From an uncultured Bacteroidales bacterium (GTDB lineage Bacteria; Bacteroidota; Bacteroidia; Bacteroidales; UBA932), in assembly GCA_905235995.1 (NCBI GenBank), contig CAJONI010000052.1, forward strand, positions 6,107 to 70,106: a stretch of DNA of 64,000 nt, written 5' to 3'. The notes beneath the pieces were generated by a model. The model was not told the origin of the DNA. It was given only the letters and a program-made list of their open reading frames with translations, and ran no database searches. Of the stretch, positions 1,984 to 62,320 are shown piece after piece. Numbering within the stretch: the stretch's first letter is position 1; the number at the start of each line of letters is the position of its first letter. A program made the translations under genes and the position numbers.

Positions 1984-3540
1984 CTATTCGTGGAAGAGCA
2001 TGCTGGCCGGCAGGTTGTCCACCAGGATGCCGGGCCCTTCGAGCCCCACCTCGATGCTGTCGTCGCCGTAGTTCTCGAAATAGTCGGCCTTGATGCGGTG
2101 GTATCCCTTGGCAAGGTTGACCCAGGCATCGCTGATGCCGCCGCCGTCGCGGTCGACGTCGCATATCAGCTGTCCGTCGATCCAGAGCCTGGCTCCGTCG
2201 TCGGAAGAGAAGGAAAGCAGGTAGAGTCCGTCCTGGTCTATCTTGAGCAGGCCTTCGAACTGGAAGCCGAAGTGGTCCTCACGCATCTTCCTCGCCGTGG
2301 AGAATGTCGAAGAGAGGCCGCGGGCCTTGACCGGCGCCGCGACTACCTCGGCAGTGCTCATGAAATCGCCTTCTTTGTAGGCGTAACGGATACCCTGGCC
2401 CTTGGGCGAGACATTCACGGCCTCGAACCTGGGAGCCGTGGAAGCATCGGGACGGCCGTCGCCGCCGTACCATTCGGGGTCGTAGGGCTCGCACTTCTCG
2501 CCGTTGCCGGGCGTGAAGTCAACCCCGGTGAGAGAGGCTATCATGGCCGCCATCTGCTTGTTGTAGTAAGGGCCGTTGTGCTTCGTCTCGCCCATTGCCG
2601 GCATGCCCGCTCCGAAAGCGAAGAGGAAGGTCTCCTCGGAGCCGCGGAGGTTGGCGCCGTGGCCCGTGTAGTTTTCGCCGCGTCCACGCCCGTGGTCGGT
2701 CGACACTAGATAGGTGGTCTTTCCTTTGTAGAAGGGATCGCTCTCGCAGTATTCCACTATGTCGCGGATGAACCTGTCGGTCTCAAGGGTGATGTCGAGA
2801 TAACGGTCGTAGCGGCGGTCGTGCCCGAACTCGTCGGTGTCGCCCAGGCCCACGTAGAACACCTTCGGATGGTCTTTCTTCAGGGTCTCCATGGCGTAGG
2901 CCATCGTGAAGGCGTCGTAGCGTTCTTCGCCCCAGATCTTCGGCATCGCTTCCTGCATGCGGTCGATCACCTTCGTGGTCGGGGTGTCGGAGAGGCCCGG
3001 CTCATACTTGGCGCTGCCCGGGAAGCCCCCGCGTTCGTTGTTGACCGCGTAGCGTATCGACTCCCAGGAGGCGTACATCATCACCCTGCCCTTGTAGCGC
3101 GGGTCCTGGTTGACCACTTCCAGCACGCTGACGTTGGGATTGCCCACCGGGTCGTTGTTGTTGACCTTCTCATCCACGAAGCCGCAGAAGAGCTCGCTGT
3201 AGCCAGGGTAGGAGAAACGGTAGGGGTTTGCCACCTGCACACGGCTCTCCAGGTTGCGGTTGCCCAGGACGTAGCCGTGCTCAGGCACGTAGCTCCAGAG
3301 GAAGGGGAGGAGCGCCTCGCGCCTTTCTTCGGGCGTATCGCGCCAGAACTTCGCCTTGGTGGCGGGAATGTCGCGCACGTGCGCGGGATTGTTTATAAGT
3401 GCTTCGTCGGCGCCGGTGAAGACTTCCTGCCAGCGCAGGCCGTCGAGCGTGATGACGATGACTTTCCTGTCATTGTCCCTGCTGCAGGAAGCAAGGCACA
3501 AAAGTGCCGTGCAGAATGCAAATAAAATGGTTTTCTTCAT
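1984..3540 (-). CDS. Lipoprotein: alkaline-phosphatase-superfamily phosphoesterase with a C-terminal PA14 domain
   Basis: The ORF is trimmed to the ATG at 3540 (MKKTILFAFCTALLCLASCSRD, a lipobox). AP-superfamily metal-site blocks are VIVITLDGLRWQEVF, LGDTDEFGHDRRY and LVSTDHGRG. The C-terminal 135 aa or so (about 1987-2395) is PA14-like (HFGFQFEGLLKIDQDGLYLLSFSSDDGARLWIDGQLI...YFENYGDDSIEVGLEGPG). It is transcribed divergently from susC. Confidence 0.8.
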   Translation of the reverse strand: MKKTILFAFCTALLCLASCSRDNDRKVIVITLDGLRWQEVFTGADEALINNPAHVRDIPATKAKFWRDTPEERREALLPFLWSYVPEHGYVLGNRNLESRVQVANPYRFSYPGYSELFCGFVDEKVNNNDPVGNPNVSVLEVVNQDPRYKGRVMMYASWESIRYAVNNERGGFPGSAKYEPGLSDTPTTKVIDRMQEAMPKIWGEERYDAFTMAYAMETLKKDHPKVFYVGLGDTDEFGHDRRYDRYLDITLETDRFIRDIVEYCESDPFYKGKTTYLVSTDHGRGRGENYTGHGANLRGSEETFLFAFGAGMPAMGETKHNGPYYNKQMAAMIASLTGVDFTPGNGEKCEPYDPEWYGGDGRPDASTAPRFEAVNVSPKGQGIRYAYKEGDFMSTAEVVAAPVKARGLSSTFSTARKMREDHFGFQFEGLLKIDQDGLYLLSFSSDDGARLWIDGQLICDVDRDGGGISDAWVNLAKGYHRIKADYFENYGDDSIEVGLEGPGILVDNLPASMLFHE

Positions 3541-3587
3541 GATTGAACCTGAACTAAATATTGCTTGCAAATGTATCAAAATTGTTG

Positions 3588-3595
3588 TAAATTTG
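3588..3595 (+). promoter_or_regulatory. Candidate -7 promoter box (TAAATTTG) upstream of the susC-like gene
   Basis: TAAATTTG matches TAnnTTTG. It sits in the 93-bp A/T-rich divergent intergenic region, 38 nt upstream of the ATG at 3634. Confidence 0.35.
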
Positions 3596-3633
3596 TTTAA
3601 ATGTTTGCCTTTTTAAGGCGGCATTGAGTAGCT

Positions 3634-6600
3634 ATGAAAACCTACAAACTTTTTACTCTATTACCTAACATTATGATTTCCAAAAAACTGTTTGGATTGC
3701 TCGCCGCACTGGTGTGCCTGGCGATGCCGTTCGGGGCTTCGGCCCAGAACGTGACAGTGCGCGGAACCGTAACCGACGCAGTCGGCCCCGTGGTAGGAGC
3801 CGTAGTGATGTCGGGCGACGCGCATGCTATCACAGACGCTGATGGTGCTTATACCATCACCGTTCCGTCCAATGCGGTCCTCGAAGTCACCTGCATTGGC
3901 TACAAGACCCAGGAGGCCCAGGTTGCCGGACGTGCGGTAATCAACTTCATCCTGGCCGAAGACGTCGAAATGCTGGGCGAGTCAGTCGTCCTGGGTTACG
4001 GCGCCCAGACGAAGAAAAAGGACCTGTCCGCTTCCGTGGGTATCGTTGGTGATCCCGACAAGATTGCCGAACGTCCGGTCCAGTCTATCACCCACATGCT
4101 GCAGGGCCAGATCCCTGGTGTCGTCGTTTCCAACAACGGCGGTAACCCCAACAGCGGCGCCAGCCTGCTCATCCGTGGTCAGGGATCCCGCAACGGTGAC
4201 TCCGTGCTGTGGGTTGTGGACGGTGTCCCCGGTGCTTCCGTCTATTCCATGAATGACATCGAGAGCATAGTCGTCCTCAAGGACGCTGCTTCCGCTGCTA
4301 TCTATGGTGCAACCTCCGGTGCTGGCGGTGTAATCCTGGTAACCACCAAGAAGGCCAACAAGGGTATCCATGTGGAATACGATGTGGTAGCGGGTGTCCG
4401 CGCCGCCTCCAATCTTCCGGAGCCCCTCACCGCCGAGGAAGAGATACTGATGAAGACCATCTCCCACCAGAACGCCGGTCTTTCCCTGCCTACCGGTTGG
4501 GATACCACCATCAACCCCTGGGTGGGTGTGCAGCGCACCAACTGGATGGATGAAGTGTTCCGTACAGCTCCTTATCAGCGCCACTCCGTCACCCTCAACT
4601 ACGGTACGGACGTGTTCAAGAGCCGTCTCACCTTCTCCTATCAGGACAACCAGGGTGTTCTGAACAACACGTACAAAAAGAATCTGGCCGTCCGTTTCAA
4701 CGGTGAATACCAGATGAACAAGTGGCTCAAGATTACGGAGGTATTATCCTACGACGACGGTTTCGGCCGTTCCGTGGACGATAGCTCGGCCCACACCGGT
4801 GTCCTGCTCTCCGCACTTTGGATGCCGCCGTCCGCCGAGGCTTATGCATCGGCCGGACCTTACGCCGGCTCTTTTGGCGGTACTACCACCGAGGATCCTG
4901 AATACATTGCCAAGTACGGTTCCAACTTCGCCGATATCCACGGTGACGTGGTGAACCCTCTCCGTATGCTGTATGCCAGCACCCAGTGGGGCCACAACGT
5001 GGATTTCTGGAATACCACCGGTATTCACATCACGCCGGTCAAGGGCCTCAAGATATCCAGCGTCTTCTCCATGGATATCAACAATGCCAACTCCAAGAGC
5101 TTCAGCCCCGCCCGTCGCGAGGTAGGTAAGCCCGATATCTCCAATGGCCTCAGCCTGAGTGCTTCCCGCGCTTTCAAGTGGCGCAGTGAAAGCACCGTCA
5201 CCTATGACCGTACCTTTGGTAAGCACACGGTGGGAGCCCTGGCCGCTTTCACCATGGACCACTGGGAGAGGCGGGGTTTTGGCGGCAGTGCTTCCGGATT
5301 TGAGAACGAAGACGAAAACTATCAGTTCCTCAAGTTCTCCACCACCACCAACTTCAACAGCGACTATTTCGACGGCCCGGACCGCAACATCGCTTTCGTG
5401 GCCCGTGCTTCCTACAGCTACGACGACCGTTACTTCGTCACTGCCTCCTGGCGTCGTGACTATGCCGGCCGTCTGCCCAACGACCACAACTCCGGTGACT
5501 TCCCGGCCGTGACCGGTGCCTGGAAGGCTTCCAGCGAACCGTTCTTCCCCAAGAACGACGTCGTGAACCTCCTCAAGGTCCGTGCTTCCTGGGGTCGTGT
5601 AGGTAACCTGGGCTCCATCGGCATGAACTATAAGTCCAACACCCTGAGCAGCAGCAACTGGAACGAGGCCCCCAACTACGGTATCGATAAAGGCACCGTC
5701 TTCGGAACCTTCTGGTATGCAGCCAACTCCATCAATAATGCGCTGACCTGGGAAACTTCCGAACAGTTCGACGCCGGTATCGATATGGATATGTTCACCG
5801 ACCGCCTGTCCATGTCGGTGGACTACTATAACAAGCGTACCTTCAACCTCATCCAGGACCAGACCATGGGTTGGCCTGTGACCATCGGCCGTAACCCCAT
5901 GAAGGTGAACCAGGGTGAGATCAACAACTCCGGTGTGGAAATCCTGGTGAACTGGAAAGACAGGGTCGGCAAGGATTTCAACTACTATGTGAGCGCTAAC
6001 TTCGCCTACAACAAGAACGTTGTGGTCTCTACCGGTTTGCTGGACGACCAGGGCAATCCTGGCAAGTGGACCGGTGGCGGTGACTGGGGTGGCGTGCCGT
6101 GGCTCTATCAGAGCGAACCCGGCCAGCCGCTGAACTCCTTCTTCGTGATCAAGACCGCCGGCATCTTCCAGAGCGTCGAGGATATCTATGACCACCAGAA
6201 GGACGGCAAGCTCATCCAGCCCAACGCCCAGCCCGGTGACCTCAAGTTCATTGACTTCAACAACGATGGAAAGATCGATACCAACGACCGTCAGTATGTA
6301 GGCTCCGCCATGCCTAAGCAGACCTTCGCATTCAGCGGCGGTTTCAACTGGAAAGGCTTCTATGCAGACATCATGTTCCAGGGCGTAGCCGGCAACAAGA
6401 TTGCATATGTGGGTAAGTCCCGTATCCTCTCCGACGTGGAAGGCAACTTCTCCCGTGCCAAGGAAATCTTCAATTCCTGGAGCCCCGAGAACCCGCACAC
6501 CTATCTGCCTCGCCTTTCCACCAACGACCCGAACGGCAACTACTCCCAGCCCTCCGATTTCTATATCGAGGATGGCAGTTATCTGCGTCTGAAGAACTTC

Positions 6601-6804
6601 ACCATCGGTTACGACTTTACGAGCCTCCTCCAGAAGCTCCCTCATTTCGCGCAGCGCGCCAGCACTTGCCGCGTTTACTTCTCCGGTGAGAATCTCCTTA
6701 CTTTCACCAAGTACTCCGGCATGGATCCGGAAGTGGGCGGCTACGATACTATCAAGTATCCTGTTTCCCGTATTTTCACCATTGGTGTGAAGATCAACTA
6801 TTAA
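3634..6804 (+). CDS. SusC/RagA-family TonB-dependent outer-membrane transporter
   Basis: There is a signal peptide; an alternative start MISKKLFGLL lies at 3673. A CarboxypepD_reg-like domain follows it directly (NVTVRGTVTDAVGPVVGAVVM), with no STN domain. Also present are a TonB-box/plug region (ESVVLGYGAQTKKKDLSASVG...LLIRGQGS), a long beta-barrel and a C-terminal aromatic residue (...IGVKINY). The gene is immediately followed by a SusD-like gene. Confidence 0.93.
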   Translation: MKTYKLFTLLPNIMISKKLFGLLAALVCLAMPFGASAQNVTVRGTVTDAVGPVVGAVVMSGDAHAITDADGAYTITVPSNAVLEVTCIGYKTQEAQVAGRAVINFILAEDVEMLGESVVLGYGAQTKKKDLSASVGIVGDPDKIAERPVQSITHMLQGQIPGVVVSNNGGNPNSGASLLIRGQGSRNGDSVLWVVDGVPGASVYSMNDIESIVVLKDAASAAIYGATSGAGGVILVTTKKANKGIHVEYDVVAGVRAASNLPEPLTAEEEILMKTISHQNAGLSLPTGWDTTINPWVGVQRTNWMDEVFRTAPYQRHSVTLNYGTDVFKSRLTFSYQDNQGVLNNTYKKNLAVRFNGEYQMNKWLKITEVLSYDDGFGRSVDDSSAHTGVLLSALWMPPSAEAYASAGPYAGSFGGTTTEDPEYIAKYGSNFADIHGDVVNPLRMLYASTQWGHNVDFWNTTGIHITPVKGLKISSVFSMDINNANSKSFSPARREVGKPDISNGLSLSASRAFKWRSESTVTYDRTFGKHTVGALAAFTMDHWERRGFGGSASGFENEDENYQFLKFSTTTNFNSDYFDGPDRNIAFVARASYSYDDRYFVTASWRRDYAGRLPNDHNSGDFPAVTGAWKASSEPFFPKNDVVNLLKVRASWGRVGNLGSIGMNYKSNTLSSSNWNEAPNYGIDKGTVFGTFWYAANSINNALTWETSEQFDAGIDMDMFTDRLSMSVDYYNKRTFNLIQDQTMGWPVTIGRNPMKVNQGEINNSGVEILVNWKDRVGKDFNYYVSANFAYNKNVVVSTGLLDDQGNPGKWTGGGDWGGVPWLYQSEPGQPLNSFFVIKTAGIFQSVEDIYDHQKDGKLIQPNAQPGDLKFIDFNNDGKIDTNDRQYVGSAMPKQTFAFSGGFNWKGFYADIMFQGVAGNKIAYVGKSRILSDVEGNFSRAKEIFNSWSPENPHTYLPRLSTNDPNGNYSQPSDFYIEDGSYLRLKNFTIGYDFTSLLQKLPHFAQRASTCRVYFSGENLLTFTKYSGMDPEVGGYDTIKYPVSRIFTIGVKINY

Positions 6805-6817
6805 TCTGACTGTGCAT

Positions 6818-8479
6818 ATGAAAAAGTATATTTCTATTGCTATTGCAGCCCTTTGCGCTCTCAGCTTCTCTTCCTGCAGCAATTTCCTGGATTATACATC
6901 CAAGGGTTTCTATACTGAGGATACGTTCTTCCAGAATGACCAGCAGGCCATGGATGCTGTCAAGAGCATCTATGCCCGTCTTCCTCAGGAAAGCCTGATG
7001 GGCCGCGAACTCTATTGGGAGCAGGCGGTTGCCTGTGACATCGTGTGGGGTAAGACCCGTTCCTTCAATACTATCGCCACCTACGAATACACCGGTGACG
7101 AGAGTGTGATTGTGGGAGTTTTCAAGAACTGCTACAATGAAGGCATGAACCGTTGCAACTGGATCATCAACAGCCTTCTCAAGAAGCAGGAGACTACTCC
7201 TCTTACCGCTATTGAAACCCGCAGTCTGGGTGAAGCATACTTTATGCGCGCCCATTACCACTTCATCATCGCCTACCGTTATGGTACCGACAAGCTGGGC
7301 GTTCCCTTCGTGGCCTACGAAGATGTGGAAGGTGGTTACAACAATGAGATTCCTCCGCAGTTGCCCACCGTCATGGACAACTATGCGTATATCGTGTCCG
7401 ACCTCAAGAAAGCCGAAGAGCTTCTGCCGCGTGTAGTTGACTACAGTGACGACGACAAGGGTCGTGCATGCAAGGAAAGCGCCGCTGCCATGATGGCCAA
7501 GGCTTATGCCTACTGGGCCACCTGGGACAAGAGTCAGTGGCCTAACGTGATCACCTGTGTGGACAGGCTGGAGAACAGCTACGGCCGTGCCCTGCACCCG
7601 GTGTTTACCGACCTCTTCGCCCCCGATGTGAGCAAGTTCTTCACCAATGAGTACTGCTGGGGTTATCCTTCCCGTGGCGGTACAGCCAAGGGCGGCTCTG
7701 TCGAGTTCCCGGGCATCTCCCTGGAAGACAAGGGATGGGGTAAGTACAACGGCTGGGGCCAGTTCAAGCCCACCCTGGATATCTACGAAGAAATGGCGAA
7801 GGACAATGTTGACGGTGTGAAGAACGAACGTCTTGCCGCAACCATCCTGGAATATGGCGACGAGTTCGAATTCTTCGGAGAGACCCGCAGGTTCTGGTCG
7901 GCTGTGAACGTGGAAGCCGGTTTCCAGATCTACAAGTTCCTGCAGCCGTTCGCTCCGGCCGACTGTCAGGAAAGAGGCTGGGTCCTGAACAACCCCGACT
8001 GGCCTTGCACCCTCATCAACTGGCCCATCGTCCGCTTCGCCGACTGCTTGCTCCTCCGCGCCGAGGCCAATCTCGTTGCCGGTAACGGAGCCGCTGCCGC
8101 TGCGGACATCAACAAGATCCGCCTGCGTTCCCATCTGCAGCCCCTGCCCGGCGCTATCGCCACCTGGACCGACCTCTATCACGAGCGTCGCTGCGAACTG
8201 GCCTTCGAGATGGCCAACGACCACGCCTATGACTGCAAGCGCTGGGCCTATTCCGGTGCACCCGAGATCAAGGCTCTTGCAGAAAAAGAACTGAATTCCC
8301 GTCCCCGCATCCGTAAATACGAAGACCGTATGGATCCCGATTCTCCTTGGGTAGAGGCTCTCTATGAGGACTATGTGAACAAGCTGCCTTGGAATGTCAA
8401 GTACATGACCTTCCCTTATCCTTCCGAACAGATCAACAAGTCTGCCGGCATGCTTCAGAACCCTCCGTCCTGGCAGTAA
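6818..8479 (+). CDS. SusD/RagB-family nutrient-binding outer-membrane lipoprotein
   Basis: The ATG is at 6818; the ORF-track start at 6812 is a GTG. The lipobox is MKKYISIAIAALCALSFSSCSN. SusD-type TPR-like helices are present (GEAYFMRAHYHFIIAYRYG, ADCLLLRAEANLVAG, LYHERRCELAFEM). It lies 13 nt after the susC stop. Confidence 0.9.
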   Translation: MKKYISIAIAALCALSFSSCSNFLDYTSKGFYTEDTFFQNDQQAMDAVKSIYARLPQESLMGRELYWEQAVACDIVWGKTRSFNTIATYEYTGDESVIVGVFKNCYNEGMNRCNWIINSLLKKQETTPLTAIETRSLGEAYFMRAHYHFIIAYRYGTDKLGVPFVAYEDVEGGYNNEIPPQLPTVMDNYAYIVSDLKKAEELLPRVVDYSDDDKGRACKESAAAMMAKAYAYWATWDKSQWPNVITCVDRLENSYGRALHPVFTDLFAPDVSKFFTNEYCWGYPSRGGTAKGGSVEFPGISLEDKGWGKYNGWGQFKPTLDIYEEMAKDNVDGVKNERLAATILEYGDEFEFFGETRRFWSAVNVEAGFQIYKFLQPFAPADCQERGWVLNNPDWPCTLINWPIVRFADCLLLRAEANLVAGNGAAAAADINKIRLRSHLQPLPGAIATWTDLYHERRCELAFEMANDHAYDCKRWAYSGAPEIKALAEKELNSRPRIRKYEDRMDPDSPWVEALYEDYVNKLPWNVKYMTFPYPSEQINKSAGMLQNPPSWQ

Positions 8480-8487
8480 ACCTTTAA

Positions 8488-10227: not shown

Positions 10228-10269
10228 ACGCTGAGATTCCCGGTCAATCCCGGAATGATTTAAAATTTT

Positions 10270-10305
10270 CAGGGCGAAGCCATTCGGCTCCGCCCTGTTT
10301 TTTTT
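10270..10305 (+). terminator. Rho-independent terminator after the susC-susD-lipoprotein unit
   Basis: cagggcg (10270-10276) ... cgccctg (10291-10297), with inner agcc/ggct pairing, followed by T8 (10298-10305). It lies in the convergent gap before the minus-strand GH27 gene. Confidence 0.75.
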
Positions 10306-10317
10306 ATGTCCTATGGA

Positions 10318-12535: not shown

Positions 12536-12656
12536 CTCATTCTTTCTCTTAATCATTACTCGTTACGGCGCTTGACGTTCTTGGAAAAAATAATTATTTT
12601 TAACAAAAAAATGGGCCCCCGTAGCCCTCATGGAGACTGAATCATTTGCGACTGTC

Positions 12657-35740: not shown

Positions 35741-35800
35741 GGGACAAAAGTACAAAAAGTATTTCCCCGTCAGGACAAAAATGGCTAACTTTATGATGCA

Positions 35801-40671: not shown

Positions 40672-40676
40672 GTATC

Positions 40677-50883: not shown

Positions 50884-50912
50884 AATCCCCCCTGATACCA
50901 ACCCCATATGCC

Positions 50913-52448: not shown

Positions 52449-52493
52449 AGTCAGAGCTTTTCCGTTCATTTGAAATATACATCGTACCCCATC

Positions 52494-55909: not shown

Positions 55910-55919
55910 CTGATTTAAT

Positions 55920-58445
55920 ATGAAACGATTACTGGTTTTCGCACTTTGCCTGGGCCTCCTGCTTTCCTGTAGTAAGGAGAAACAGGCCTATGTCTTCACC
56001 TATTTCGACAATTCCCGCCAGGATGCGGGCCTGTTCGTAGCCTACAGCTGGGACGGCTACGACTGGACGGCCGTGAACGACGGCGAGCCCATCATGAAGC
56101 CCATCGTGGGGAAAGACAGGATCATGCGCGACCCCAGCATATGCCAGGGCCCCGACGGTACCTTCCATCTTGTCTGGACCATCAGCTGGAACGCCCAAAG
56201 CATAGGCTATGCCTGTTCGAAGGACCTGATCCACTGGAGCGAGCAGAAGATCATTCCCGTGATGGAGATGTTTCCTTCGACCCGGAACACCTGGGCGCCG
56301 GAGCTCTTCTACGAGGCTTCCGAAGACCTCTTCTACATCTTCTGGGCCTCCACCGTTCCGGGCAATCCGGAAGTGTCGACGGATGGCAGCATCAGCGAAG
56401 ACCAGTACAACCACCGCCTCTACTGCACCACCACGCGTGATTTTGAAACCTTCTCTCCTACAAGGCTTTACTTCAATCCGTCCTTCAACGTGATCGACGC
56501 ATGCGTGATGCGGGTTCCCAAGACCGGGGAGCTTCTGATGGCCCTCAAGAACGAGAACCTCAACCCGCCGGAGAAGAACATCCGGCTGACGCGCTCGAGA
56601 AAGATGGCCGACGGTTTCCCCACGGAAGTGTCGGCTCCCATCAGCGGGGAGGAATGGGCCGAAGGGCCTACCCTGATTCCCATCGGCGACGATATACTGG
56701 TCTATTTTGACCAGTTCCGGAAACACAAATATGGCGCTGCGCTCAGCCACGACGGAGGCTGTACCTGGGAGGACGCCACCGACCGGATCAGCGTTCCGGA
56801 AGGCATCAGCCACGGCACCGCCATCGCCGTCCCCGAGCGCTATGTGAAGGCCCTGAGCAAATACGATTTCAAGGCCTGCACGCAGAGCCCCCGCATAGTG
56901 AACATCATCAATTTCATCCGCTACACCGAGCCCCGGGACGATGAGATTACCGAAAAGGTGCTCTACGAGACCGTGCGCTCGCAGGCGGAGGACCTCAGGA
57001 GCAAGGGTCTGGTGGGTACCTACCTTCTTCAGTATGATGCCCTTATCGACACAAGCTACCAGGCTCTGATGAAGGAAGAGATGGCACGCGGTTGCGAGGT
57101 GGGCGCCTGGTGGGAAATTACCCAGCCGCACGTGGAAGATGCAGGGTACACCTGGCGGGGCCGCTACCCCTGGGACTGGTACGCCAACGTGGGCTTCTCA
57201 GTGGGCTATACACCAGCCGAGCGGGAGCACCTTGTGGATGTCTACATGGAGCGCTTCAAGGAGATTTTCGGAGTATATCCCAAGTCGGTGGGCTCCTGGT
57301 TCATAGAGGCCGGAACGCTGGCATATCTGGCGGACAGATACGGCATAGAGGCTTCCTGCAACTGCAGGGACCAGGTGGGGACTGACGGATATACCCTCTG
57401 GGGAGGCTACTGGAACGGTGGCTACTACCCCAGCAGGGAGAATGCCTATATGCCTGCCCAGACTGAGAAAGGGGCTATCGCCCTTCCTGTTTTCCGTATG
57501 CTGGGAAGCGACCCTCTGGACCAGTATGAGGCCGGTGTGGGTGGCGCGGTCCAAAGCGTGGCCACCATGGAGCCGGTGTATGGCAATTACGGCGGCCAGC
57601 CGGAGTGGATAGACTGGTACTTCAAGATGTTCACCACGGAGCCGCACCTGGGCTATGACTATGTGCAGATCGGCCAGGAGAACTCCTTCACCTGGGCCGG
57701 ATTCGCCGAGGGCTTCGTGTACCAGACTGCGCGCCTGGCGGAGTTGAAGGCCGAAGGCAAGGTACGGATTGAAACCCTCTCCGAGACGGGCCGCTGGTTC
57801 AAGGAACAGTATCCTGTTACGCCTCCCACCTCCGTCGTAGCCTCGGAAGACCATCAGGGGAAGGAGCGGAAGACCTTCTGGTTCAACTGCCGGAACTACC
57901 GTGCCAACCTCCTCTGGGAAGGCCCGCGTCTGAAGGTCCGGGACCTGCATCTCTTTGACGAGCGGCTGCGCAGCCCATATCTGGACACCCCGGACACTCT
58001 GCCTGTTTTCCATTACGAGACCCTGCCTCTGGTGGACGGCTGCCTCTGGAGCACGGTAGAGAATATGGCCGGACTGTTTTTCGTGACGCCGGAGTTCAAA
58101 GGCGGGGAGTCCGTCTTCATCCCGGAGGAAGGAAAGCAGAAAGTGGAATGGCTTTCCATCGACGGCAACGGACGCTTTGTCCTCAGCTTCACCGAAGACG
58201 GCATCGAGATATCGTCGATAGGGCTGGTGGGCGGATGGTGCCTGGAGCTGAAAGTGAATCCAGGTACGGAGCTGCCTTTTACGGATGTGGCTGAAAAACA
58301 ACTGAAAGCCCATTATCTTGGCATGGATTACGGGCTTGCACTGGGAAAAGGCCGCTTTGAGGACCTGCGGGGCGAGGGGAGCGGCGAGGTGTTCCGCATT
58401 CTTCCTGAAGGCGACAGTATCACACTCGGTTTTATCCGTTTTTAG
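55920..58445 (+). CDS. Lipoprotein: GH43-like five-bladed beta-propeller N-terminal domain fused to an uncharacterised C-terminal region of about 540 aa
   Basis: Lipobox LLLSCSKE. The propeller-like segment is YVFTYFDNS...FVAYSWDGYDWTAV...IMRDPSICQGPDGTFHLVWT...WAPELFYE...FYIFWAS. From about 56880 onward (INFIRYTEPRDDE...GSWFIEAGTLAYLADRYGIEASCNCRDQ...) I recognise no family with confidence. Confidence 0.5.
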   Translation: MKRLLVFALCLGLLLSCSKEKQAYVFTYFDNSRQDAGLFVAYSWDGYDWTAVNDGEPIMKPIVGKDRIMRDPSICQGPDGTFHLVWTISWNAQSIGYACSKDLIHWSEQKIIPVMEMFPSTRNTWAPELFYEASEDLFYIFWASTVPGNPEVSTDGSISEDQYNHRLYCTTTRDFETFSPTRLYFNPSFNVIDACVMRVPKTGELLMALKNENLNPPEKNIRLTRSRKMADGFPTEVSAPISGEEWAEGPTLIPIGDDILVYFDQFRKHKYGAALSHDGGCTWEDATDRISVPEGISHGTAIAVPERYVKALSKYDFKACTQSPRIVNIINFIRYTEPRDDEITEKVLYETVRSQAEDLRSKGLVGTYLLQYDALIDTSYQALMKEEMARGCEVGAWWEITQPHVEDAGYTWRGRYPWDWYANVGFSVGYTPAEREHLVDVYMERFKEIFGVYPKSVGSWFIEAGTLAYLADRYGIEASCNCRDQVGTDGYTLWGGYWNGGYYPSRENAYMPAQTEKGAIALPVFRMLGSDPLDQYEAGVGGAVQSVATMEPVYGNYGGQPEWIDWYFKMFTTEPHLGYDYVQIGQENSFTWAGFAEGFVYQTARLAELKAEGKVRIETLSETGRWFKEQYPVTPPTSVVASEDHQGKERKTFWFNCRNYRANLLWEGPRLKVRDLHLFDERLRSPYLDTPDTLPVFHYETLPLVDGCLWSTVENMAGLFFVTPEFKGGESVFIPEEGKQKVEWLSIDGNGRFVLSFTEDGIEISSIGLVGGWCLELKVNPGTELPFTDVAEKQLKAHYLGMDYGLALGKGRFEDLRGEGSGEVFRILPEGDSITLGFIRF

Positions 58446-58454
58446 AATTAAGTT

Positions 58455-59486
58455 ATGAAGCGAAGAGATTTTATCAAAGTGTCAGGAGTGGCTGCGGCGG
58501 GAATAGCACTGGGCGGCTGCTCGACCGACAAAGGATCTGCGGAAGGCCCTCTGGTGAAGGAGTGGCCTCAATACCCTGCGCGCATCTCCCGTAATGTGGA
58601 GCCGTTCGCCCCTCTGTATATCAAGGAAATAACCATCGAGGCTGGGGCCACCGAGCCCTTCGACGTGATGCATGTCTCAGACACCCACCTCTCCAGGGCC
58701 GACAGCCGTGACGATGAGAAGAAGATCATGCTGGCCGCCTCCCGCAGCACCTGGATGAATGCCGGAGAGCACTACCTTGACGAAGCCATCCGCATCGCCC
58801 GCGAAAACGGGATGTATCTGATGCACACGGGCGACATGCACGACTTCGTGTCGGAAGCCAACCTTGACGGCGACGCGAAGCATATGATGGAAGGGGACTG
58901 GTTCGTATGTGCCGGAAACCATGAATTCTCACGGTACGTAGGCGAGGCCAGGGAAGATGAGGCCTACAAGGCCGGCAGTTACGATGCCGTCCGCGGCGCG
59001 TTCCCCAACGACCTGTACTTTGCCAGCCGCATAATCAACGGCGTCAACTTCGTGGCAGTGGACGACGTGTATTATAACTTCACTGAGCAGCAGCTGGAAC
59101 TCATGAAGGCCGAGATAGCCAAGGGCCTGCCCGTCATCCTCCTGATCCACGTTCCAATCTACACGCCCGAGTACTACAAAGACGAAATGGAGAGGATGGA
59201 CAACCGCTGCGCATATCTTGCCGGCGTACCCCTGGAGCTCACTGAAACCTACGAACCCGGCGTTACCTATCCGGCCGGGGAGGAGTGGCGCTACCGGAAG
59301 GTGCAGCAGCGGGCCGACGAGCCCACGCTCCGCTTCATCGAATGGCTCCGTGGGCAGCCGCTCCTGAAGGGCATCCTATGCGGCCACATGCACCGCTTCT
59401 TCGAGGAGCGTTTTTCTCCTACTGCCATCCAGTACACTGTCGGCGCCACCTACACCGGCGATGCCCAGGTGATACATTTCAGATAG
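58455..59486 (+). CDS. TAT-signal lipoprotein, calcineurin-like metallophosphoesterase
   Basis: Twin-arginine signal plus lipobox MKRRDFIKVSGVAAAGIALGGCS. Metallophosphoesterase motifs appear in order: VSDTHL (DxH), HTGDMHD (GD), AGNHEF (GNHE) and CGHMHR (GH). Confidence 0.85.
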   Translation: MKRRDFIKVSGVAAAGIALGGCSTDKGSAEGPLVKEWPQYPARISRNVEPFAPLYIKEITIEAGATEPFDVMHVSDTHLSRADSRDDEKKIMLAASRSTWMNAGEHYLDEAIRIARENGMYLMHTGDMHDFVSEANLDGDAKHMMEGDWFVCAGNHEFSRYVGEAREDEAYKAGSYDAVRGAFPNDLYFASRIINGVNFVAVDDVYYNFTEQQLELMKAEIAKGLPVILLIHVPIYTPEYYKDEMERMDNRCAYLAGVPLELTETYEPGVTYPAGEEWRYRKVQQRADEPTLRFIEWLRGQPLLKGILCGHMHRFFEERFSPTAIQYTVGATYTGDAQVIHFR

Positions 59487-59492
59487 TTCGCG

Positions 59493-61376
59493 ATGAAAAG
59501 AATCCTGCTGCTGCTGTCTATTGTATCGTTGGTGGCCTGCACCGAGAAGGAGCCGGAGCTGCGGCTCTTGGAGGAGGGTGCGACGCTTGGTTATCAGGCC
59601 ACTTCGTGGGTCACGATGGTTGTTTCCGGAGGAGACTGGACTCTTTCCCCGGCCGATTCGTATGATTGGATCACCCCTTCAAGGATGCAGGGGTCAGTAG
59701 GGAATATCATCTCTTTCAGGTTGCAGGAAAACCTGACAGGGAGCAGTCGCAGCGCAGATTATCGCGTGCTGTCGGGTTCTCAGGCAAGGGATATCCATCT
59801 GGTTCAGGAAGCGAAGCCCGTGGTGCCTATCCCTGAGTCGAAAGGAGCGTACAAGCATGTGGTGATTTTGGGGGTCGACGGCGGCGGCGCCTTTTTCAAG
59901 GATACTGATACGCCCTGCTGTGACGAGATTTTCAAGGGAGGAGCCTTCACCTACAAGGCCCAGGCCCAGAAACCCACCATCAGCGCGCAGAACTGGGGTT
60001 CCATCCTTCACGGCGTGCTGCCGGAGTTCCACGGACTTACCAATGGAATCGTCGCAAGTCGTCCATACCCGCAGAACAGTCCTTATCCGTCCATCTTCCG
60101 GCTGGTACGTGAAGCCTGGCCCGACGCTGAACTTGCTTCTTTCTGTAATTGGAATCCAATCAATTACGGAATCATCGAGATTGATCTCGGCGTCGTGGAA
60201 GGTACTGGTGACGATCCGTCAGTAACGACGAAGGCTGTCACCTATCTGGACACGCATGCTCCGACGCTACTGTTCATGCAGTTTGACTCGGTGGACGGGG
60301 CCGGCCATGGAAGCGGATACGGCTCTGCACAGCATCTTAAGGCTCTGTCGACAGTTGACGGATATATAGGCCGTATTTATGATAAACTGAAGGACCGTGG
60401 ATTGTTGGACGAAACCCTTTTCATCGTGTGCACGGACCACGGCGGCACGCCCGGTGGCAGCCATGGCGGTGATACCCAGGCCGAACTGGACATTTTCATG
60501 GGAGTGGCCGGAAAGACCGTTGATGGTGAAACCGGCATCCTGGATGCCGAGAACCGCGATATTGCTGCCATCGCGGCTTACGCCCTGGGGCTGGAATATC
60601 CTGAAACCTGGACCGGACATGTGCCAACGGGCGTTTTCCTGGGCGTCGAGGCCGGGGAGCGGAAGGTGGTGGAACTGCCTGTTTCCGAGTATCGCAAGCA
60701 CGAAACGGTCCCTACGCCCGATCTCGCCCGTTTGCAGGCTCTGCTGGATGGACATGAGCTGCTGGCCTATCTCCCTTTGGACGGGAGCGAAGCCGATGCT
60801 TCCGGGAAGGTGGAAACTGCCATGACGGGAAAGATTTACTACTACGACGCTTATTTCGGCCGGGGTGCCGCTTTCGACGACGCCTATGTGACCCTTAAGG
60901 ATGTGGAAGTGGGGAAGGGCTCGTTCTCAGCCGCCTTCTGGATGAAGACCGGCGGGGTGTCCGACGATCCGGCCATCCTTTCCAACAAGAACTGGGATTC
61001 TGGCCTCAACAACGGTTTCGTGCTGTCACTCCGGGATGGTGACATCAAGTTCAACGCCGGGAACGGCGCCAGCTCGAGGATGGACGTGACTGCCTCCCTT
61101 CCGCACGATTACAAGGAGGGTTGGATGCATGTGATACTGGTGGTGGACCGCAGCGCGAATGTGGTCCGCATCTATGAGGACTTTGAAATGCAGGCCGAGG
61201 ACGGTATCCCCGCCTCCCTGCAGACCGTGTCCTTCGATGCACTTCCGCTGAACATCGGCCAGGACGGCAGAGGTCAGTACAAGTACAAACTCGCGGCCCA
61301 GCTCGACGAGTTCCTCCTCACGGCCGATGTGCTGTCGGACGAAGACATCGCCGCACTGAAAGCATATTACGAATAG
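59493..61376 (+). CDS. Surface lipoprotein: BACON domain + alkaline-phosphatase-superfamily (NPP-like) phosphodiesterase + LamG/concanavalin-like C-terminal domain
   Basis: Lipobox SLVACTE. The BACON-like segment is SWVTMVVSGGDWTLSPADSYDWITPS...RSADYRVLSGSQARDIHLVQ. AP/NPP blocks are VVILGVDGGGAFF, PTISAQNWGSILHGVLPEFHG, FDSVDGAGHGSGYGS and VCTDHGGTPGGSHGG. The LamG-like end is FSAAFWMKT...FVLSLRDGDIKFNAG...LDEFLLTADVLSDEDIAAL. Confidence 0.78.
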   Translation: MKRILLLLSIVSLVACTEKEPELRLLEEGATLGYQATSWVTMVVSGGDWTLSPADSYDWITPSRMQGSVGNIISFRLQENLTGSSRSADYRVLSGSQARDIHLVQEAKPVVPIPESKGAYKHVVILGVDGGGAFFKDTDTPCCDEIFKGGAFTYKAQAQKPTISAQNWGSILHGVLPEFHGLTNGIVASRPYPQNSPYPSIFRLVREAWPDAELASFCNWNPINYGIIEIDLGVVEGTGDDPSVTTKAVTYLDTHAPTLLFMQFDSVDGAGHGSGYGSAQHLKALSTVDGYIGRIYDKLKDRGLLDETLFIVCTDHGGTPGGSHGGDTQAELDIFMGVAGKTVDGETGILDAENRDIAAIAAYALGLEYPETWTGHVPTGVFLGVEAGERKVVELPVSEYRKHETVPTPDLARLQALLDGHELLAYLPLDGSEADASGKVETAMTGKIYYYDAYFGRGAAFDDAYVTLKDVEVGKGSFSAAFWMKTGGVSDDPAILSNKNWDSGLNNGFVLSLRDGDIKFNAGNGASSRMDVTASLPHDYKEGWMHVILVVDRSANVVRIYEDFEMQAEDGIPASLQTVSFDALPLNIGQDGRGQYKYKLAAQLDEFLLTADVLSDEDIAALKAYYE

Positions 61377-61399
61377 CATAAATCACATTTCAAAGCATA

Positions 61400-62320
61400 A
61401 TGAGACGCAGAGATTTTATAAAAGTGTCAGGGGTGGCCGCCGCAGGCCTTGCCCTCGCAGGCTGCACACCCAAGACCGGTTTCTGGGGCAAGAAGGACGA
61501 AGAATTGTATGGACCCAGGAAGACAGGGCATTTCTCCCTGATGCAGATTTCGTCGGCAACCAATACCATAGGCAATTCCTATCTCCTGAAGACCTCCGGC
61601 GGAAAGGTGATCATGATGGACGGTGGCTTTGCTTCCGATGCGCCCAAACTGAGGAAGAAACTCTCCGAAGCGGGCAATCACGTGGATCTCTGGTTCATTT
61701 CCCACCCGCATGAGGACCATATGGAGGCCCTTGCCACCATTCTGGATGACCCGCAGGGCATTACCATTGACAAGGTGATCCATTCCCGCCTGCCGGACGC
61801 TTTCCTGGACAACGAACCGCAAAGCGGAGACAATGCCCGCGGCTATTACCGGGTGCTGGACAATACCACAGAGCGTACCGACATCATCAACCTGCACCGG
61901 CCCATGCAACGCTTTGATATAGACGGTATTGGTATCATGGTACTAACCGTGGACCATCCGTCATTCAGGAGCGGCCACTTCAACAACCAGTCCATCATCA
62001 TCCGGGTATGGGACGATGTGAAGAGCGTAGTTTTCCTGGGGGACGCCGAGGAGGAATGCGGCGAAGCGGCACTACGCGAATGCCGCGAGTACCTGGACTG
62101 TGACTACCTGCAGATGGCCCACCACGGGCAGAGCGGCGTGTCGGAGGAGTTCTACAAGACCATCAACTTCCGCGTGTGCCTGTGGCCCACTCCTTCCTGG
62201 GTATGGGAGCCGGGGGAGAATACCTGGCTCAAAACGCTGGACACCCGGCGCTGGATGGACGAGAAAGGCATCACGGAGCATCACGTGAGCTGCCTGGAAG
62301 AGGACTGGGAGTTGCTTTGA
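61400..62320 (+). CDS. TAT-signal lipoprotein, metallo-beta-lactamase-fold hydrolase
   Basis: Signal MRRRDFIKVSGVAAAGLALAGCT. The MBL motif is WFISHPHEDHMEAL (HxHxDH). A later block is VVFLGDAEEE...MAHHGQSG. Confidence 0.8.
   Translation: MRRRDFIKVSGVAAAGLALAGCTPKTGFWGKKDEELYGPRKTGHFSLMQISSATNTIGNSYLLKTSGGKVIMMDGGFASDAPKLRKKLSEAGNHVDLWFISHPHEDHMEALATILDDPQGITIDKVIHSRLPDAFLDNEPQSGDNARGYYRVLDNTTERTDIINLHRPMQRFDIDGIGIMVLTVDHPSFRSGHFNNQSIIIRVWDDVKSVVFLGDAEEECGEAALRECREYLDCDYLQMAHHGQSGVSEEFYKTINFRVCLWPTPSWVWEPGENTWLKTLDTRRWMDEKGITEHHVSCLEEDWELL

Follow-up and report, generated by a model that had tools for sequence, protein, structure and literature searches.

The analyzed DNA, a stretch of 64 kb referred to as the window, derives from an uncultured, high-GC Bacteroidales bacterium of the gut or rumen whose closest relatives are metagenome-assembled genomes (MAGs) from ruminant guts. 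Between positions 1984 and 62320, gene calling and Pfam searches identified one SusC/SusD pair, 17 glycosidase-type domains in 16 genes (an interrupted GH106 was counted as one), and eight phosphoesterase-type domains spread over seven genes. An initial sequence-only reading had put the glycosidase-type domains at more than 20, which proved too high; its count of eight phosphoesterase-type domains was recovered exactly, and the SusC/SusD pair is indeed the only one in the window. Almost every domain listed in that reading was found again at its position; GDPD_2 and Metalloenzyme fell below the Pfam gathering score, and BACON was weak. The glycosidase types present in single copy are GH3, MGH1-like/GH63, CelD_N plus GH9-like, WbsX-like, GH127, GH43, and DUF4838, next to a weak GH43-like N-domain; an SGNH esterase and a GFO/IDH/MocA oxidoreductase are also encoded. 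From 12630 to 62320, all genes except CutC lie on the plus strand, with intergenic gaps of mostly ≤57 nt and one of 151 nt. With CutC again the exception, every product encoded between 1984 and 62320 has a signal peptide, lipobox, or TAT motif at its start, in line with the earlier description of tightly packed genes for secreted proteins and lipoproteins.

The SusC-like TonB-dependent transporter (3634–6804, plus strand; Pfam Plug and CarboxypepD_reg) lacks the STN domain that is present in its Dysgonomonas gadei homolog; it shares 87% identity with its ortholog in the relative L084, 66% with those in L004 and L017, and 44% with that of D. gadei (L010). The adjacent SusD-like lipoprotein (6812–8479, plus strand; SusD_RagB, SusD-like_3) shares 88% identity with its counterpart in L084 and 39% with that of D. 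gadei. It is followed by a 579-aa lipoprotein of no known family (8488–10227, plus strand; no match in Pfam or NCBIfam) at the position expected for a surface glycan-binding protein; relatives keep it downstream of SusD, with identities of 68% (L084), 65% (L004), and 34% (L011).

Four core enzymes, including a phosphodiesterase::alkaline phosphatase fusion described below, are encoded consecutively on the plus strand. The first is a GH92 α-mannosidase with CHB_HEX_C/Fn3_assoc and PA14 domains (15835–18642), whose gene lies in nine relatives upstream of the fusion gene, either immediately or with just the EEP gene in between. Its best PDB matches are 7zgm (4e-146), a plant N-glycan α-1,3-mannosidase from B. 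massiliensis (PMC9522356), and BT3130 (2e-137). CcMan5, the only structurally characterized GH92 that uncaps Man-1-P, is distant (5e-37). The MGH1-like/GH63 (α/α)6 hydrolase (20571–22181; signal peptide, MGH1-like_GH 2.5e-32) is the most conserved core enzyme, with 64–86% identity in all Bacteroidales relatives. It shares the MGH1-like_GH domain, the GH63 C-terminal region, and the single (α/α)6 domain of about 500 aa with mannosylglycerate/glucosylglycerate hydrolases and YgjK; however, the relationship is only distant (YgjK 2e-8, TTHA0978 3e-3, NCBIfam glucosylglycerate hydrolase 28 versus a cutoff of 550 bits), and unlike the characterized MGH1-like members it is a secreted protein encoded within a PUL. 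The EEP-fold lipoprotein (22193–23044; Pfam EEP 43 bits) matched 3g6s (2.6e-43), 3mpr (2e-40), and the ‘mannosyl-6-phosphatase’ 4c1r (3.8e-40), and its catalytic N/E/H/D/N/D-H residues are invariant across seven orthologs. Judged by sequence similarity, it is a clear homolog of BT3783, the mannose-6-phosphatase of a yeast-mannan PUL (E 4e-40).

The remaining core gene encodes a secreted two-domain enzyme (18646–20574, plus strand) composed of a GDPD/SMaseD-like TIM barrel and a C-terminal alkaline phosphatase (AP). The AP domain (Alk_phosphatase 5e-46, 158 bits) has a full PhoA active site and matches TAB5 AP at 2e-44. The GDPD_2 match lies on the last strand of the barrel and is weak (21.8 versus a gathering score of 27 bits); it is backed separately by invariant residues and by a TIM-barrel model. 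Residues H25, H27, E48, D50, and H62 as well as the AP motifs do not vary among 16 homologs, and the His…Glu-x-Asp…His pattern presumably resembles the catalytic/metal site of SMaseD. The model of the N-domain (pLDDT 77) gave its best TM match to the Arcanobacterium haemolyticum PLD 9yd8, a sphingomyelinase-D-type PLD (TMq 0.59), at a weak Foldseek E-value of 3e-3, and generic TIM barrels reached similar scores; no PDB match was found at the sequence level, profile search included. The N-domain is tentatively assigned as a GDPD/SMaseD-like phosphodiesterase, which differs from enzymes such as 9yd8 in being fused to an alkaline phosphatase. A homolog search with the fusion gave 2142 matches at E ≤1e-10, AP-only proteins included, the best 120 of which were full-length. 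The fusion of a phosphodiesterase to a phosphomonoesterase would allow cutting and subsequent dephosphorylation within a single protein.

Five further phosphoesterase genes lie among the glycosidase genes and at the margins of the cluster. An AP-superfamily (NPP-like) lipoprotein with C-terminal PA14 is encoded on the minus strand (1984–3579, likely true start 3540). PA14 was assigned at 4.6e-14 and Metalloenzyme at 1.8e-4 (21.6 versus a cutoff of 24.3 bits); hhalign aligned the protein with the NPP-LamG profile with 77% probability (E 2e-5) including the GDTDEFGH and STDHG metal motifs, and its ortholog in the relative L086 is 60% identical. The others are on the plus strand. A small NPP-type (AP-superfamily) lipoprotein (23057–23950; Phosphodiest 6.1e-23), a putative phosphodiesterase, carries GLDG, SSSAGN, DEPDGVGH, and TSDHGG..HG motifs, and the sulfatase CxPxR motif was not found in it. 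A TAT-exported lipoprotein metallophosphoesterase (58455–59486; Metallophos 3.1e-9, 38 bits; TAT_signal) has complete DTH, GD, GNHE, and GHMH motifs and 71% identity in the relative L083. The following lipoprotein (59493–61376) combines a BACON-like domain (weak, 20.4 bits) with NPP-type and LamG domains; its residues D129, S164, D265, D268, H272, D315, H316, and H324 show no variation among 16 homologs, and its orthologs in L083 and L084 are situated amid glycosidases. The last gene (61400–62320) encodes a TAT-exported MBL-fold hydrolase (Lactamase_B 8.2e-12, 46 bits) with HPHEDH at residue 102 and 83% identity in L083. Loss of catalytic residues had been named as a possible objection; motif inspection and homolog alignments showed them to be retained and invariant in every phosphoesterase domain. 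The association of several of these enzymes with PA14, LamG, or BACON modules suggests that they act on glycans.

Beyond the core, two He_PIG plus GH27 proteins of the α-galactosidase or β-L-arabinopyranosidase type are encoded at 10318–12498 (minus strand; Melibiase_2 3.4e-52; 83% identity in L084) and 32904–35081 (plus strand; 68% identity in L086) and are 63% identical to each other. All following genes are on the plus strand. A GH106 α-L-rhamnosidase (12630–15683; Glyco_hydro_106 7.7e-191) shares 73% identity with orthologs in L083 and L084. A lone in-frame TAG (30369–30371) interrupts the second GH106 (29625–32882), and profile positions 2–138 and 176–741 are found in two ORFs of the same frame with this one stop between them. 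A full GH78-type α-L-rhamnosidase (23960–26539) and a GH78-type protein consisting of the six-hairpin domain only (26536–28245) form a pair with orthologs in L086 (75% identical) and L003 (69%). They are followed by the TAT-exported GFO/IDH/MocA oxidoreductase (28282–29628), predicted to be periplasmic and glycoside 3-dehydrogenase-like (NCBIfam BT_2158_fam 1.1e-32, under cutoff). Further downstream are CelD_N plus GH9-like (35801–38122), a lipoprotein of 626 aa without known family or PDB match (38132–40012), and DUF2490 (40048–40671); the GH9-like and DUF2490 genes are neighbors in L083 (60% identical). A GH78-like six-hairpin domain is fused N-terminally to GH3 (40668–45059), as it is in L084 (77% identity), and a WbsX-like (PF14307) TIM-barrel protein follows (45076–46275; 8.2e-45; 85% identity in L083). 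The product of 46288–50883 combines GH127 with a C-terminal second GH92 plus CHB_HEX_C and PA14; the counterparts in L084 are two adjacent separate genes (67% and 72% identical). The series continues with GH43 plus CBM6-like (50811–52448), DUF4838 plus PA14 (52470–54749), GxDLY plus SGNH esterase (54746–55909), and a lipoprotein of 841 aa whose N-domain weakly resembles GH43 and which has no PDB match (55920–58445); an NCBIfam α-arabinofuranosidase N-domain was detected within 50811–58445 (1.4e-20).

Comparison with related genomes indicates that the cluster represents an expanded form of a compact, uncharacterized core PUL that is widespread. The core gene set comprises SusC/D, GH92 plus PA14, EEP, the GDPD/SMaseD-like::AP fusion, and the GH63/MGH1-like enzyme, joined in closer relatives by the 579-aa protein. 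Its synteny is retained not only in uncultured Bacteroidales and in omasum MAGs from buffalo and goat but also in Alistipes, Ca. Cryptobacteroides, and three genomes of Dysgonomonas. In D. gadei, the core forms a compact PUL regulated by FecR, with only two GHs but four phosphoesterase domains and a ROK kinase; such a sugar kinase follows the GH63-like gene in the gut and rumen lineages. Dysgonomonas and the available 9.6-kb Alistipes contig lack the rhamnosidases, GH27, GH127, and GH43, which are a lineage-specific addition to the core. The metagenome relatives L083, L084, and L086 have orthologs of most window genes at 60–88% identity in shuffled order; six of the seven phosphoesterase genes are among those represented. 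Additional phosphodiesterases of relatives comprise EEP::GDPD fusions (PF03009, 1.5e-34), GDPD plus DUF4996, Metallophos plus PA14, and NPP plus CHB_HEX and PA14. The phosphoesterases are thus conserved as neighbors of GH genes, a point on which the sequence-only reading had made its proposal depend; because divergent genomes show this combination repeatedly, with their genes in shuffled order, chance co-occurrence is not expected.

The nearest precedents are the yeast-mannan PULs of B. thetaiotaomicron and PusCD2-PhoA1 of F. johnsoniae. Like the window, MAN-PUL1/2 of B. thetaiotaomicron combine a SusC/D locus with GH92 α-mannosidases and a secreted EEP-fold sugar phosphatase; their EEP phosphatases are BT2630 and BT3783 (4c1r/3mpr), the latter of which the window EEP matches at about 1e-40. 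BT2629 (GH92) and BT3783 act on phosphorylated high-mannose N-glycan (Cuskin et al. 2015, PMC4978465). GH92 is next to EEP in the core loci of Dysgonomonas and Alistipes, and the locus tags BT2629/BT2630 suggest the same in B. thetaiotaomicron. Common to both systems would be the removal of phosphate so that mannosidases can proceed. In contrast to the yeast-mannan PULs, no Pfam domain of GH76, GH125, or GH38, which define attack on the mannan backbone, was found in the window; it has eight phosphoesterase domains versus one per yeast-mannan PUL, including dedicated phosphodiesterases and the PDE::AP fusion, as well as the GH63-like enzyme and a large Rha/Ara/Gal-active complement. The locus is not unique; it has partial precedents in BT2629/BT2630 and BT3783 as well as, in F. 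johnsoniae, in PhoA1 together with PusCD2.

With a probability that we estimate at roughly 0.6, the region 1984–62320 is one expanded PUL built on a conserved ‘phospho-mannoside’ core, in which the phosphoesterases serve access to carbon rather than phosphate scavenging. In the lineage of the window, the core is supplemented by enzymes removing decorations (GH78, GH106, GH27, GH127, GH43, GH3, DUF4838, SGNH esterase, and oxidoreductase) and by further phosphoesterases (two NPP types, one with BACON and LamG; AP plus PA14; the TAT metallophosphoesterase; and the TAT MBL hydrolase). Exo-glycosidases and the esterase would initially remove Rha, Ara, Gal, and acetyl decorations, and phosphodiesterases would then cleave bridges or caps, e.g. 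of the inositol-P, glycerol-P, ethanolamine/choline-P, or Man-1-P type. The AP domain and EEP would take off the leftover phosphomonoester, e.g. Man-6-P, and the GH92 mannosidases and the GH63-like enzyme, now unblocked, would finish the core. That relatives keep six of the seven phosphoesterase genes together with glycosidase orthologs, and that several of the products carry carbohydrate-binding modules, argues for phosphoesterases integral to glycan breakdown.

The cluster might instead be a mosaic, in which a compact phospho-mannoside PUL lies beside one or two independent pectic/arabinogalactan-type CAZyme clusters and packing creates the illusion of a single-substrate mega-PUL; we regard this as a less probable alternative. 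GH106, GH78, GH127, GH43, and GH27 are families known in pectin and AGP breakdown, but GH28, PL1, GH105, GH95, and GH2, which define pectin PULs, gave no Pfam match in the 64-kb window, which has a single SusC/D pair for all genes. Distant core loci lack rhamnosidases, GH27, and GH127, and the scaffold_641 relative has the gene set distributed over two sub-loci 34 kb apart, so the 60 kb could represent at least two functional units. Against this, phosphoesterases are interspersed within the second cluster, too, in L083 (order: GH9-like, Metallophos, GDPD, WbsX, GH43, MBL, GH43, NPP-LamG, GH106, GH78), a core-type SusC/D occurs in L084 directly with GH27, GH106, NPP-LamG, GH78-like::GH3, GH127, and GH92, and two GH78 genes and one GH27 flank the core enzymes in L086. 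A Pfam search of the 64-kb window detected no regulator that would tie the genes together; this, like the SusC without an STN domain, runs counter to the single expanded PUL.

Organic-phosphorus acquisition of the Pus type, with phosphate supply as the purpose and glycosidases that only expose phosphate esters, appears unlikely. In F. johnsoniae PUSII, PusCD2 (Fjoh_3250/1) adjoins PhoA1 (Fjoh_3249) and is induced with it by phosphate depletion (Lidbury et al. 2021, PMC8115612). PhoA1 shares its two-domain architecture (pf00245 plus pf13653) and its place beside a SusC/D-like pair with the window fusion, and Pedobacter and Chitinophaga homologs of the fusion (35–37% identical) occur in a minimal arrangement as in PUSII, in Pedobacter with FecR, SusC, and SusD. 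This occurrence of the architecture in soil Bacteroidota beside SusC/D and in the absence of CAZymes speaks against a role in carbon access. However, whereas Pus loci are devoid of CAZymes and are induced when phosphate is depleted, gut/rumen-lineage fusions are embedded among 2 to 17 GH domains (17 in the window), a ROK sugar kinase follows the GH63-like gene, and the EEP is of the kind used for carbon access in yeast-mannan PULs. The Pedobacter SusD (SusD-like_2) is of another Pfam type than that of the window, and Pfam revealed no Pst/Pho genes in the 64-kb window. Phosphate is plentiful in rumen and gut contents, and scavenging is therefore an unlikely driver.

That the phosphate theme is a naming artefact, with the AP-superfamily, MBL, metallophosphoesterase, and EEP proteins, all from catalytically promiscuous superfamilies and several with modest Pfam scores (Metallophos 38, Lactamase_B 46, EEP 43 bits), acting on sulfate esters, lactones, nucleic acids, or other non-phosphate bonds, is improbable given an AP domain of 158 bits with a full PhoA active site, an EEP matching a biochemically proven sugar phosphatase at 4e-40, NPP-type proteins with a Ser nucleophile and without the sulfatase C/S-x-P-x-R motif, and true GDPD domains (PF03009, 1.5e-34) fused to EEP orthologs in relatives, so that a shared phosphate-ester theme is the simplest explanation for six independent folds in one locus.

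For the expanded phospho-mannoside PUL, the most likely substrate is a mannose-containing, phosphodiester-substituted glycoconjugate, either glycan or glycolipid. The original proposal of a PUL for a phosphodiester-bridged or phosphorylated hetero-glycan survived the checks on conservation and catalytic residues, and a literature and database search found no characterized orthologous PUL acting on a non-phosphorylated substrate; its list of substrates stays speculative. GPI/GIPC/PIM-type inositol-phospho-glycans, fungal mannosyl-phosphate mannans, and bacterial wall glycopolymers are conceivable candidates, none of them favored by the data. Teichoic-type polymers match the core of GH92 and Man-6-P phosphatase less well than mannose- or inositol-phosphate glycoconjugates.

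The gene content of the window was determined from an ORF listing and Pfam scans of the 33 predicted proteins, which reproduced the gene map of the sequence-only reading nearly gene for gene. The sole SusC/SusD pair is located at 3634-8479, as had been claimed, and comprises a SusC-like protein (3634-6804; Plug and CarboxypepD_reg domains) and an adjacent SusD-like lipoprotein (6812-8479; SusD_RagB and SusD-like_3 domains). All seven phosphoesterase genes with their eight domains were likewise recovered where that reading had placed them: AP+PA14 (1984-3579, minus strand), a two-domain fusion protein (18646-20574), EEP (22193-23044), a small NPP (23057-23950), a metallophosphoesterase (58455-59486), a BACON-NPP-LamG protein (59493-61376), and an MBL protein (61400-62320). 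The more than 20 glycosidase-type domains reported earlier were reduced by the Pfam count to 17, namely two each of GH27, GH106, and GH92, three of GH78 type, and one each of GH3, MGH1-like/GH63, GH9-like, WbsX-like, GH127, GH43, a weak GH43-like N-domain, and DUF4838. The locus additionally encodes a GxDLY/SGNH esterase and a GFO/IDH/MocA oxidoreductase exported by TAT. The genes between 12630 and 62320 are arranged as a co-directional, nearly gap-free array (gaps mostly ≤57 nt), and a cytoplasmic CutC-family gene (35108-35755, minus strand) is the only reversed gene inside these 50 kb. With the exception of CutC, every product of 1984-62320 starts with a signal peptide, lipobox, or TAT motif, and all enzymes of the locus are predicted to be secreted. 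The GC content is approximately 0.60 across the window. The susC/susD pair co-localized with predicted-secreted carbohydrate-active enzymes (the GH-type domains and the SGNH esterase) identifies the locus as a PUL. Pfam analysis revealed no linked sensor/regulator domain (HTCS, ECF-sigma/anti-sigma, or SusR-like) in any window gene, and the window SusC lacks an STN domain, whereas the homologous locus of Dysgonomonas gadei has FecR and an STN-SusC. In an NCBIfam scan of the window proteins, all glycosidases and phosphoesterases stayed below the equivalog cutoffs; thus, there are no specific enzyme names to rely on.

In three related metagenome loci, referred to as L083, L084, and L086, tblastn detected orthologues at 60-88% identity for the majority of window genes. 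Six of the seven phosphoesterase genes were among them; for the small NPP, no orthologue was found in these three loci. The joint conservation of phosphoesterase and glycosidase genes in related genomes, on which the sequence-only reading depended, was thereby observed. The order in L083 is DUF2490, GH9-like, TAT-Metallophos, GDPD/DUF4996, WbsX, GH43, TAT-MBL, GH43, NPP-LamG, GH106, GH78, GFO, 3-keto-disaccharide hydrolase, and GH106. L084 contains SusC, SusD, a 582-aa unknown protein, GH27, GH106, NPP-LamG, GH78-like::GH3, GH20, GH127, and GH92+PA14, and 34 kb further along the same contig L086 follows with GH2, GH78, GH78, GH92+PA14, the fusion, GH63-like, EEP::GDPD, AP+PA14, and GH27. GH127 and GH92+PA14 form a single ORF of 1531 aa in the window (46288-50883) and two neighboring genes in L084 (1-3489; 67% and 72% identity, respectively), and EEP, which stands alone in the window, is fused to GDPD elsewhere. 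A gene set that is conserved despite a shuffled order and such variable fusions bears the classic signature of functional coupling. A mosaic of independent clusters is considered an unlikely explanation of the 60-kb locus.

The C-terminal domain of the fusion protein is an alkaline phosphatase (AP; Alk_phosphatase, PF00245, 157.9 bits versus a gathering threshold of 24.4), which matched TAB5 AP at 2e-44. Its PhoA motifs DGMG, DSAGGGS, DHETGG, and DDHT, including the nucleophilic Ser, were invariant in 16 homologues of 62-93% identity. The N-terminal domain gave no significant match to a family model (GDPD_2, 21.8 bits versus a Pfam cutoff of 27), and a profile search of PDB sequences with this domain retrieved nothing. 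A structure search with the whole fusion gave alkaline phosphatases only, and the N-domain was therefore modeled alone. The model (pLDDT 77) is a β/α barrel with the top TM-score match to 9yd8 (TMq 0.59; weak Foldseek E value of 3e-3), a sphingomyelinase-D-type PLD of Arcanobacterium. A His-x-His...Glu-x-Asp...His set (H25, H27, E48, D50, and H62) was invariant in the 16 homologues, and these residues may correspond to the SMaseD catalytic and metal site. The structural match to a PLD together with the sub-threshold GDPD_2 match makes a PLC-like/GDPD-like phosphodiesterase the probable assignment of the modeled N-domain. A homologue search with the fusion returned 2142 matches at E ≤ 1e-10, AP-only matches included, of which the 120 best were full-length.

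By scanning one genome per GTDB species, full-length copies of the fusion were found in uncultured Bacteroidales, MAGs from buffalo and goat omasum, Alistipes, Ca. Cryptobacteroides, Pedobacter, Chitinophaga, and three Dysgonomonas genomes including D. gadei ATCC BAA-286. When all window proteins were used as tblastn queries, SusC, SusD, GH92+PA14, EEP, the fusion, and the GH63-like protein emerged as a core conserved in most Bacteroidales loci, joined in closer relatives by the 579-aa unknown protein; in its compact form, this core is conserved over gut, termite, and ruminant Bacteroidales. The only SusC/D pair of the window is orthologous to the core pair, at identities of 66%/62% to that of rumen MAGs and 44%/39% to that of D. 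gadei. In D. gadei, the locus lies at approximately 324-346 kb of NZ_GL891979.1 and is a compact PUL (FecR, STN-SusC, SusD, GH92, EEP, fusion, Metallophos+PA14, GH63-like, and ROK kinase) with two glycosidases and four phosphoesterase domains. In the rumen MAGs, EEP and a genuine GDPD domain (PF03009, 1.5e-34) form one protein, and the ROK kinase gene follows the GH63-like gene. This EEP::GDPD arrangement was located in the ruminant relatives L004 (14425-16152), L017 (14455-16179), and L086 (13607-15340), and by its predicted domains it is a second, independent phosphomonoesterase-phosphodiesterase fusion of the same system; in the window, EEP is unfused and the small NPP gene comes next. The GH63/MGH1-like protein (20571-22181) is the most conserved core enzyme. 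Its identity amounts to 80-86% in relatives whose GH92 and fusion reach 55-67%, and to 64-70% even in Dysgonomonas and Alistipes; characterized GH63 members are only remotely related.

In soil Sphingobacteriia and Chitinophagia, the fusion occurs in loci that are free of CAZymes, consisting of FecR, SusC, and SusD followed by the fusion (Pedobacter sp. AW31-3R, L013, 3803-11854; also L012 and L014-L016). These loci match PUSII, the phosphate-starvation-induced phosphate-utilization system (Pus) of Flavobacterium johnsoniae, in which PhoA1 (Fjoh_3249) adjoins PusCD2 and is induced by phosphate depletion (Lidbury 2021, PMC8115612). PhoA1 has the same domain architecture as the window fusion (pf00245 and pf13653), and the window shares with the Pus system a SusC/D-like pair beside phosphomono- and phosphodiesterases. 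A phosphate-scavenging Pus system is nevertheless an improbable explanation of the window, since Pus loci are devoid of CAZymes, whereas 17 GH-type domains are present here. The CAZyme-free PhoA1 and Pedobacter loci, the compact Bacteroidales PUL, and the window thus place the fusion family in three contexts: Pus-type loci of soil Bacteroidota, a compact phospho-mannoside PUL of gut, termite, and rumen Bacteroidales, and the expanded 60-kb form of this lineage.

Canonical catalytic motifs were present in EEP and both NPP-type proteins, in the metallophosphoesterase (DxH, GD, GNHE, and GHxH), and in the MBL protein (HPHEDH). Where orthologues were aligned, the catalytic residues were invariant (7 sequences for EEP, 16 each for NPP-LamG and the fusion), and the loss of catalytic residues that would have spoken against the sequence-only reading was not observed. 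The catalytic half of AP+PA14 aligned with the NPP profile at its metal-binding motifs (hhalign, probability 77%). Catalysts of the phosphodiesterase as well as the phosphomonoesterase type are present and, by their motifs, predicted to be intact. That they are misnamed hydrolases acting on non-phosphate bonds is highly improbable. More than 500 homologues of the BACON-NPP-LamG protein were retrieved; one of these (P0229, 816 aa, 48% identity) is annotated from a Ruminococcaceae MAG, and the family thus crosses phyla within gut communities.

EEP matched the PDB entries 4c1r and 3mpr of BT3783, a 'mannosyl-6-phosphatase', at approximately 1e-40 (4c1r, 3.8e-40). BT2630 and BT3783 have been assayed as sugar phosphatases, and BT2629 (GH92) and BT3783 were applied to phosphorylated high-mannose N-glycan (Cuskin et al. 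2015, PMC4978465). The window shares GH92 (two domains) and the homologue of the EEP sugar phosphatase with the yeast α-mannan PUL (MAN-PUL type), but lacks its backbone and side-chain enzymes: no window protein gave a Pfam match to GH76, GH125, or GH38 at E ≤ 1e-3, and none of these families was seen in the annotated L083, L084, L086, D. gadei, and rumen-MAG loci. The closest PDB matches of one GH92 protein (15835-18642) were 7zgm, a plant-N-glycan α-1,3-mannosidase (PMC9522356), and BT3130/BT3965. A CcMan5-like uncapping of Man-1-P by this protein was not supported; CcMan5 was the weakest PDB match, and the top matches were enzymes of the α-1,3/α-1,4 clade. Thompson et al. 2018 have speculated on a relation between the α-1,4-mannosidases of the BT3965 clade and GPI anchors that carry ethanolamine-phosphate, which is taken here as a lead rather than a test. 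A rhamnogalacturonan-II/pectin PUL was discarded for the absence of the hallmark families: no typical Pfam domain of GH28, PL1, GH105, GH95, GH2, or GH137-143 was seen in the window, which has only the GH78, GH106, GH127, and GH43 types, and the GH127 part scored 430 bits versus the cutoff of 950 for the aceric-acid hydrolase equivalog (NCBIfam). A link to the D-arabinan PUL42 of D. gadei (HMPREF9455_02467-81) was likewise rejected, as PUL42 consists of different genes at a different locus, and its description mentions neither GH92 nor a phosphatase (PMC10115798). The searchable literature yielded no characterized PUL with such a composition. PULs as a kind of system are known, as are individual precedents (BT3783 and PhoA1); what is new here is the core dominated by phosphoesterases, together with its 60-kb expansion.

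Gut Bacteroidota harvest glycans chiefly by means of PULs, and those characterized so far handle glycans decorated with sulfate, acetyl, or methyl groups. For glycolipid head groups and phosphodiester-linked glycans, of which GPI anchors, the GIPCs of plants and fungi, mannosyl-phosphate mannans, and teichoic-type polymers are examples, no PUL is to our knowledge described beyond the one or two phosphatases of yeast-mannan loci. As the single SusC/D pair of the window belongs to the core type, the ligand that is imported probably has the same scaffold as that of the minimal D. gadei PUL, and the extra enzymes would deal with lineage-specific decorations. Glycosyl-inositol-phosphate head groups (GPI, fungal/plant GIPC, or PIM/lipomannan) are our leading candidate for the substrate, with a probability of about 0.3-0.35. 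Fungal mannosyl-phosphate (rhamno/galacto)mannoproteins are a possible, somewhat less favored substrate; glycopolymers of the bacterial wall or capsule that are linked through glycerol-P, choline-P, or sugar-1-P are slightly less likely still, and other classes take up the remainder.

Several phosphoesterases bear carbohydrate-binding modules, and the phosphoesterases are conserved alongside the mannosidases. In the proposed sequence of reactions, decorations would be stripped by the rhamnosidases, GH27, GH127, GH43, GH3, DUF4838, and the esterase, possibly with a 3-keto pathway formed by the TAT-GFO enzyme and by genes resembling DUF1080 at either end of the window. The GDPD-like, NPP, metallophosphoesterase, and MBL enzymes would cut phosphodiester bridges or caps, the AP domain and EEP would take off leftover phosphomonoesters, and GH92 and the GH63-like enzyme would finish hydrolysis; the PDE::AP fusion would couple the two phosphate steps.

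The core, taken here as SusC/D, GH92+PA14, BT3783-like EEP, the fusion, a PA14-bearing metallophosphoesterase or NPP, the GH63/MGH1-like protein, and the ROK kinase, might tentatively represent the first PUL type dedicated to glycosyl-inositol-phospho-lipid head groups, with GPI anchors, fungal or plant GIPCs, and actinobacterial PIM/lipomannan as candidates. With such head groups as substrate, the phosphodiesterases would take off inositol-P-lipid and ethanolamine-P or inositol-P substituents, phosphatases would clear Man-6-P or Ins-P, α-mannose would be trimmed by GH92, and the α-hexosyl-inositol bond would be cleaved by the GH63-like enzyme. In this reading, the rumen version of 60 kb would be an adaptation to richly decorated glycans of plant-type GIPC or of GPI-anchored arabinogalactan-proteins. 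The locus and the compact core from which it derives suggest that an abundant class of phosphorylated substrates has gone unrecognized, and they also point to new enzyme activities (the PDE::AP fusion, phosphodiesterases with carbohydrate-binding modules, and the secreted GH63-like enzyme). Since the cultured D. gadei ATCC BAA-286 carries the minimal version, the question is experimentally tractable and can be tested directly.

The second GH106 gene (29625-32882) contains one in-frame TAG at 30369-30371, and its halves share the reading frame; the interruption may reflect recent pseudogene formation, strain variation, or an assembly error. One further copy of the interrupted gene was found, in L001, but was rejected as independent confirmation; L001 matches the window over 21.9 kb at 100% identity and hence derives from the same assembly or strain. 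The unusual fusion of a GH78-like six-hairpin domain with GH3 (40668-45059, 1463 aa) is, judged from its conservation in L084 (5392-9810, 77% identity), a real architecture. Three large lipoproteins with no or almost no Pfam/NCBIfam match (8488-10227, 579 aa; 38132-40012, 626 aa; 55920-58445, 841 aa) may represent new glycan-binding or catalytic families; a PDB sequence search with the 626-aa and 841-aa proteins gave no match. Downstream of AP+PA14, a SIS-domain protein (510-1616, minus strand) is weakly similar to the GlmS C-domain and NagB-II glucosamine-6-phosphate deaminase and could hint at amino-sugar catabolism; its gene is not kept beside the AP+PA14 orthologue in L086. The TAT-exported GFO oxidoreductase (28282-29628) resembles the glycoside 3-dehydrogenase BT_2158 (1e-32), and the translated sequence revealed partial DUF1080/3-keto-disaccharide-hydrolase-like proteins at both window ends (1-516, plus strand; 63553-64000, minus strand). 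GFO and 3-keto-disaccharide hydrolase genes also occur in L083 and in a further related locus, L003, which adds a xylose-isomerase-like TIM-barrel gene. This gene content suggests that an oxidative glycoside-cleavage module is present and that the locus may run past the window.
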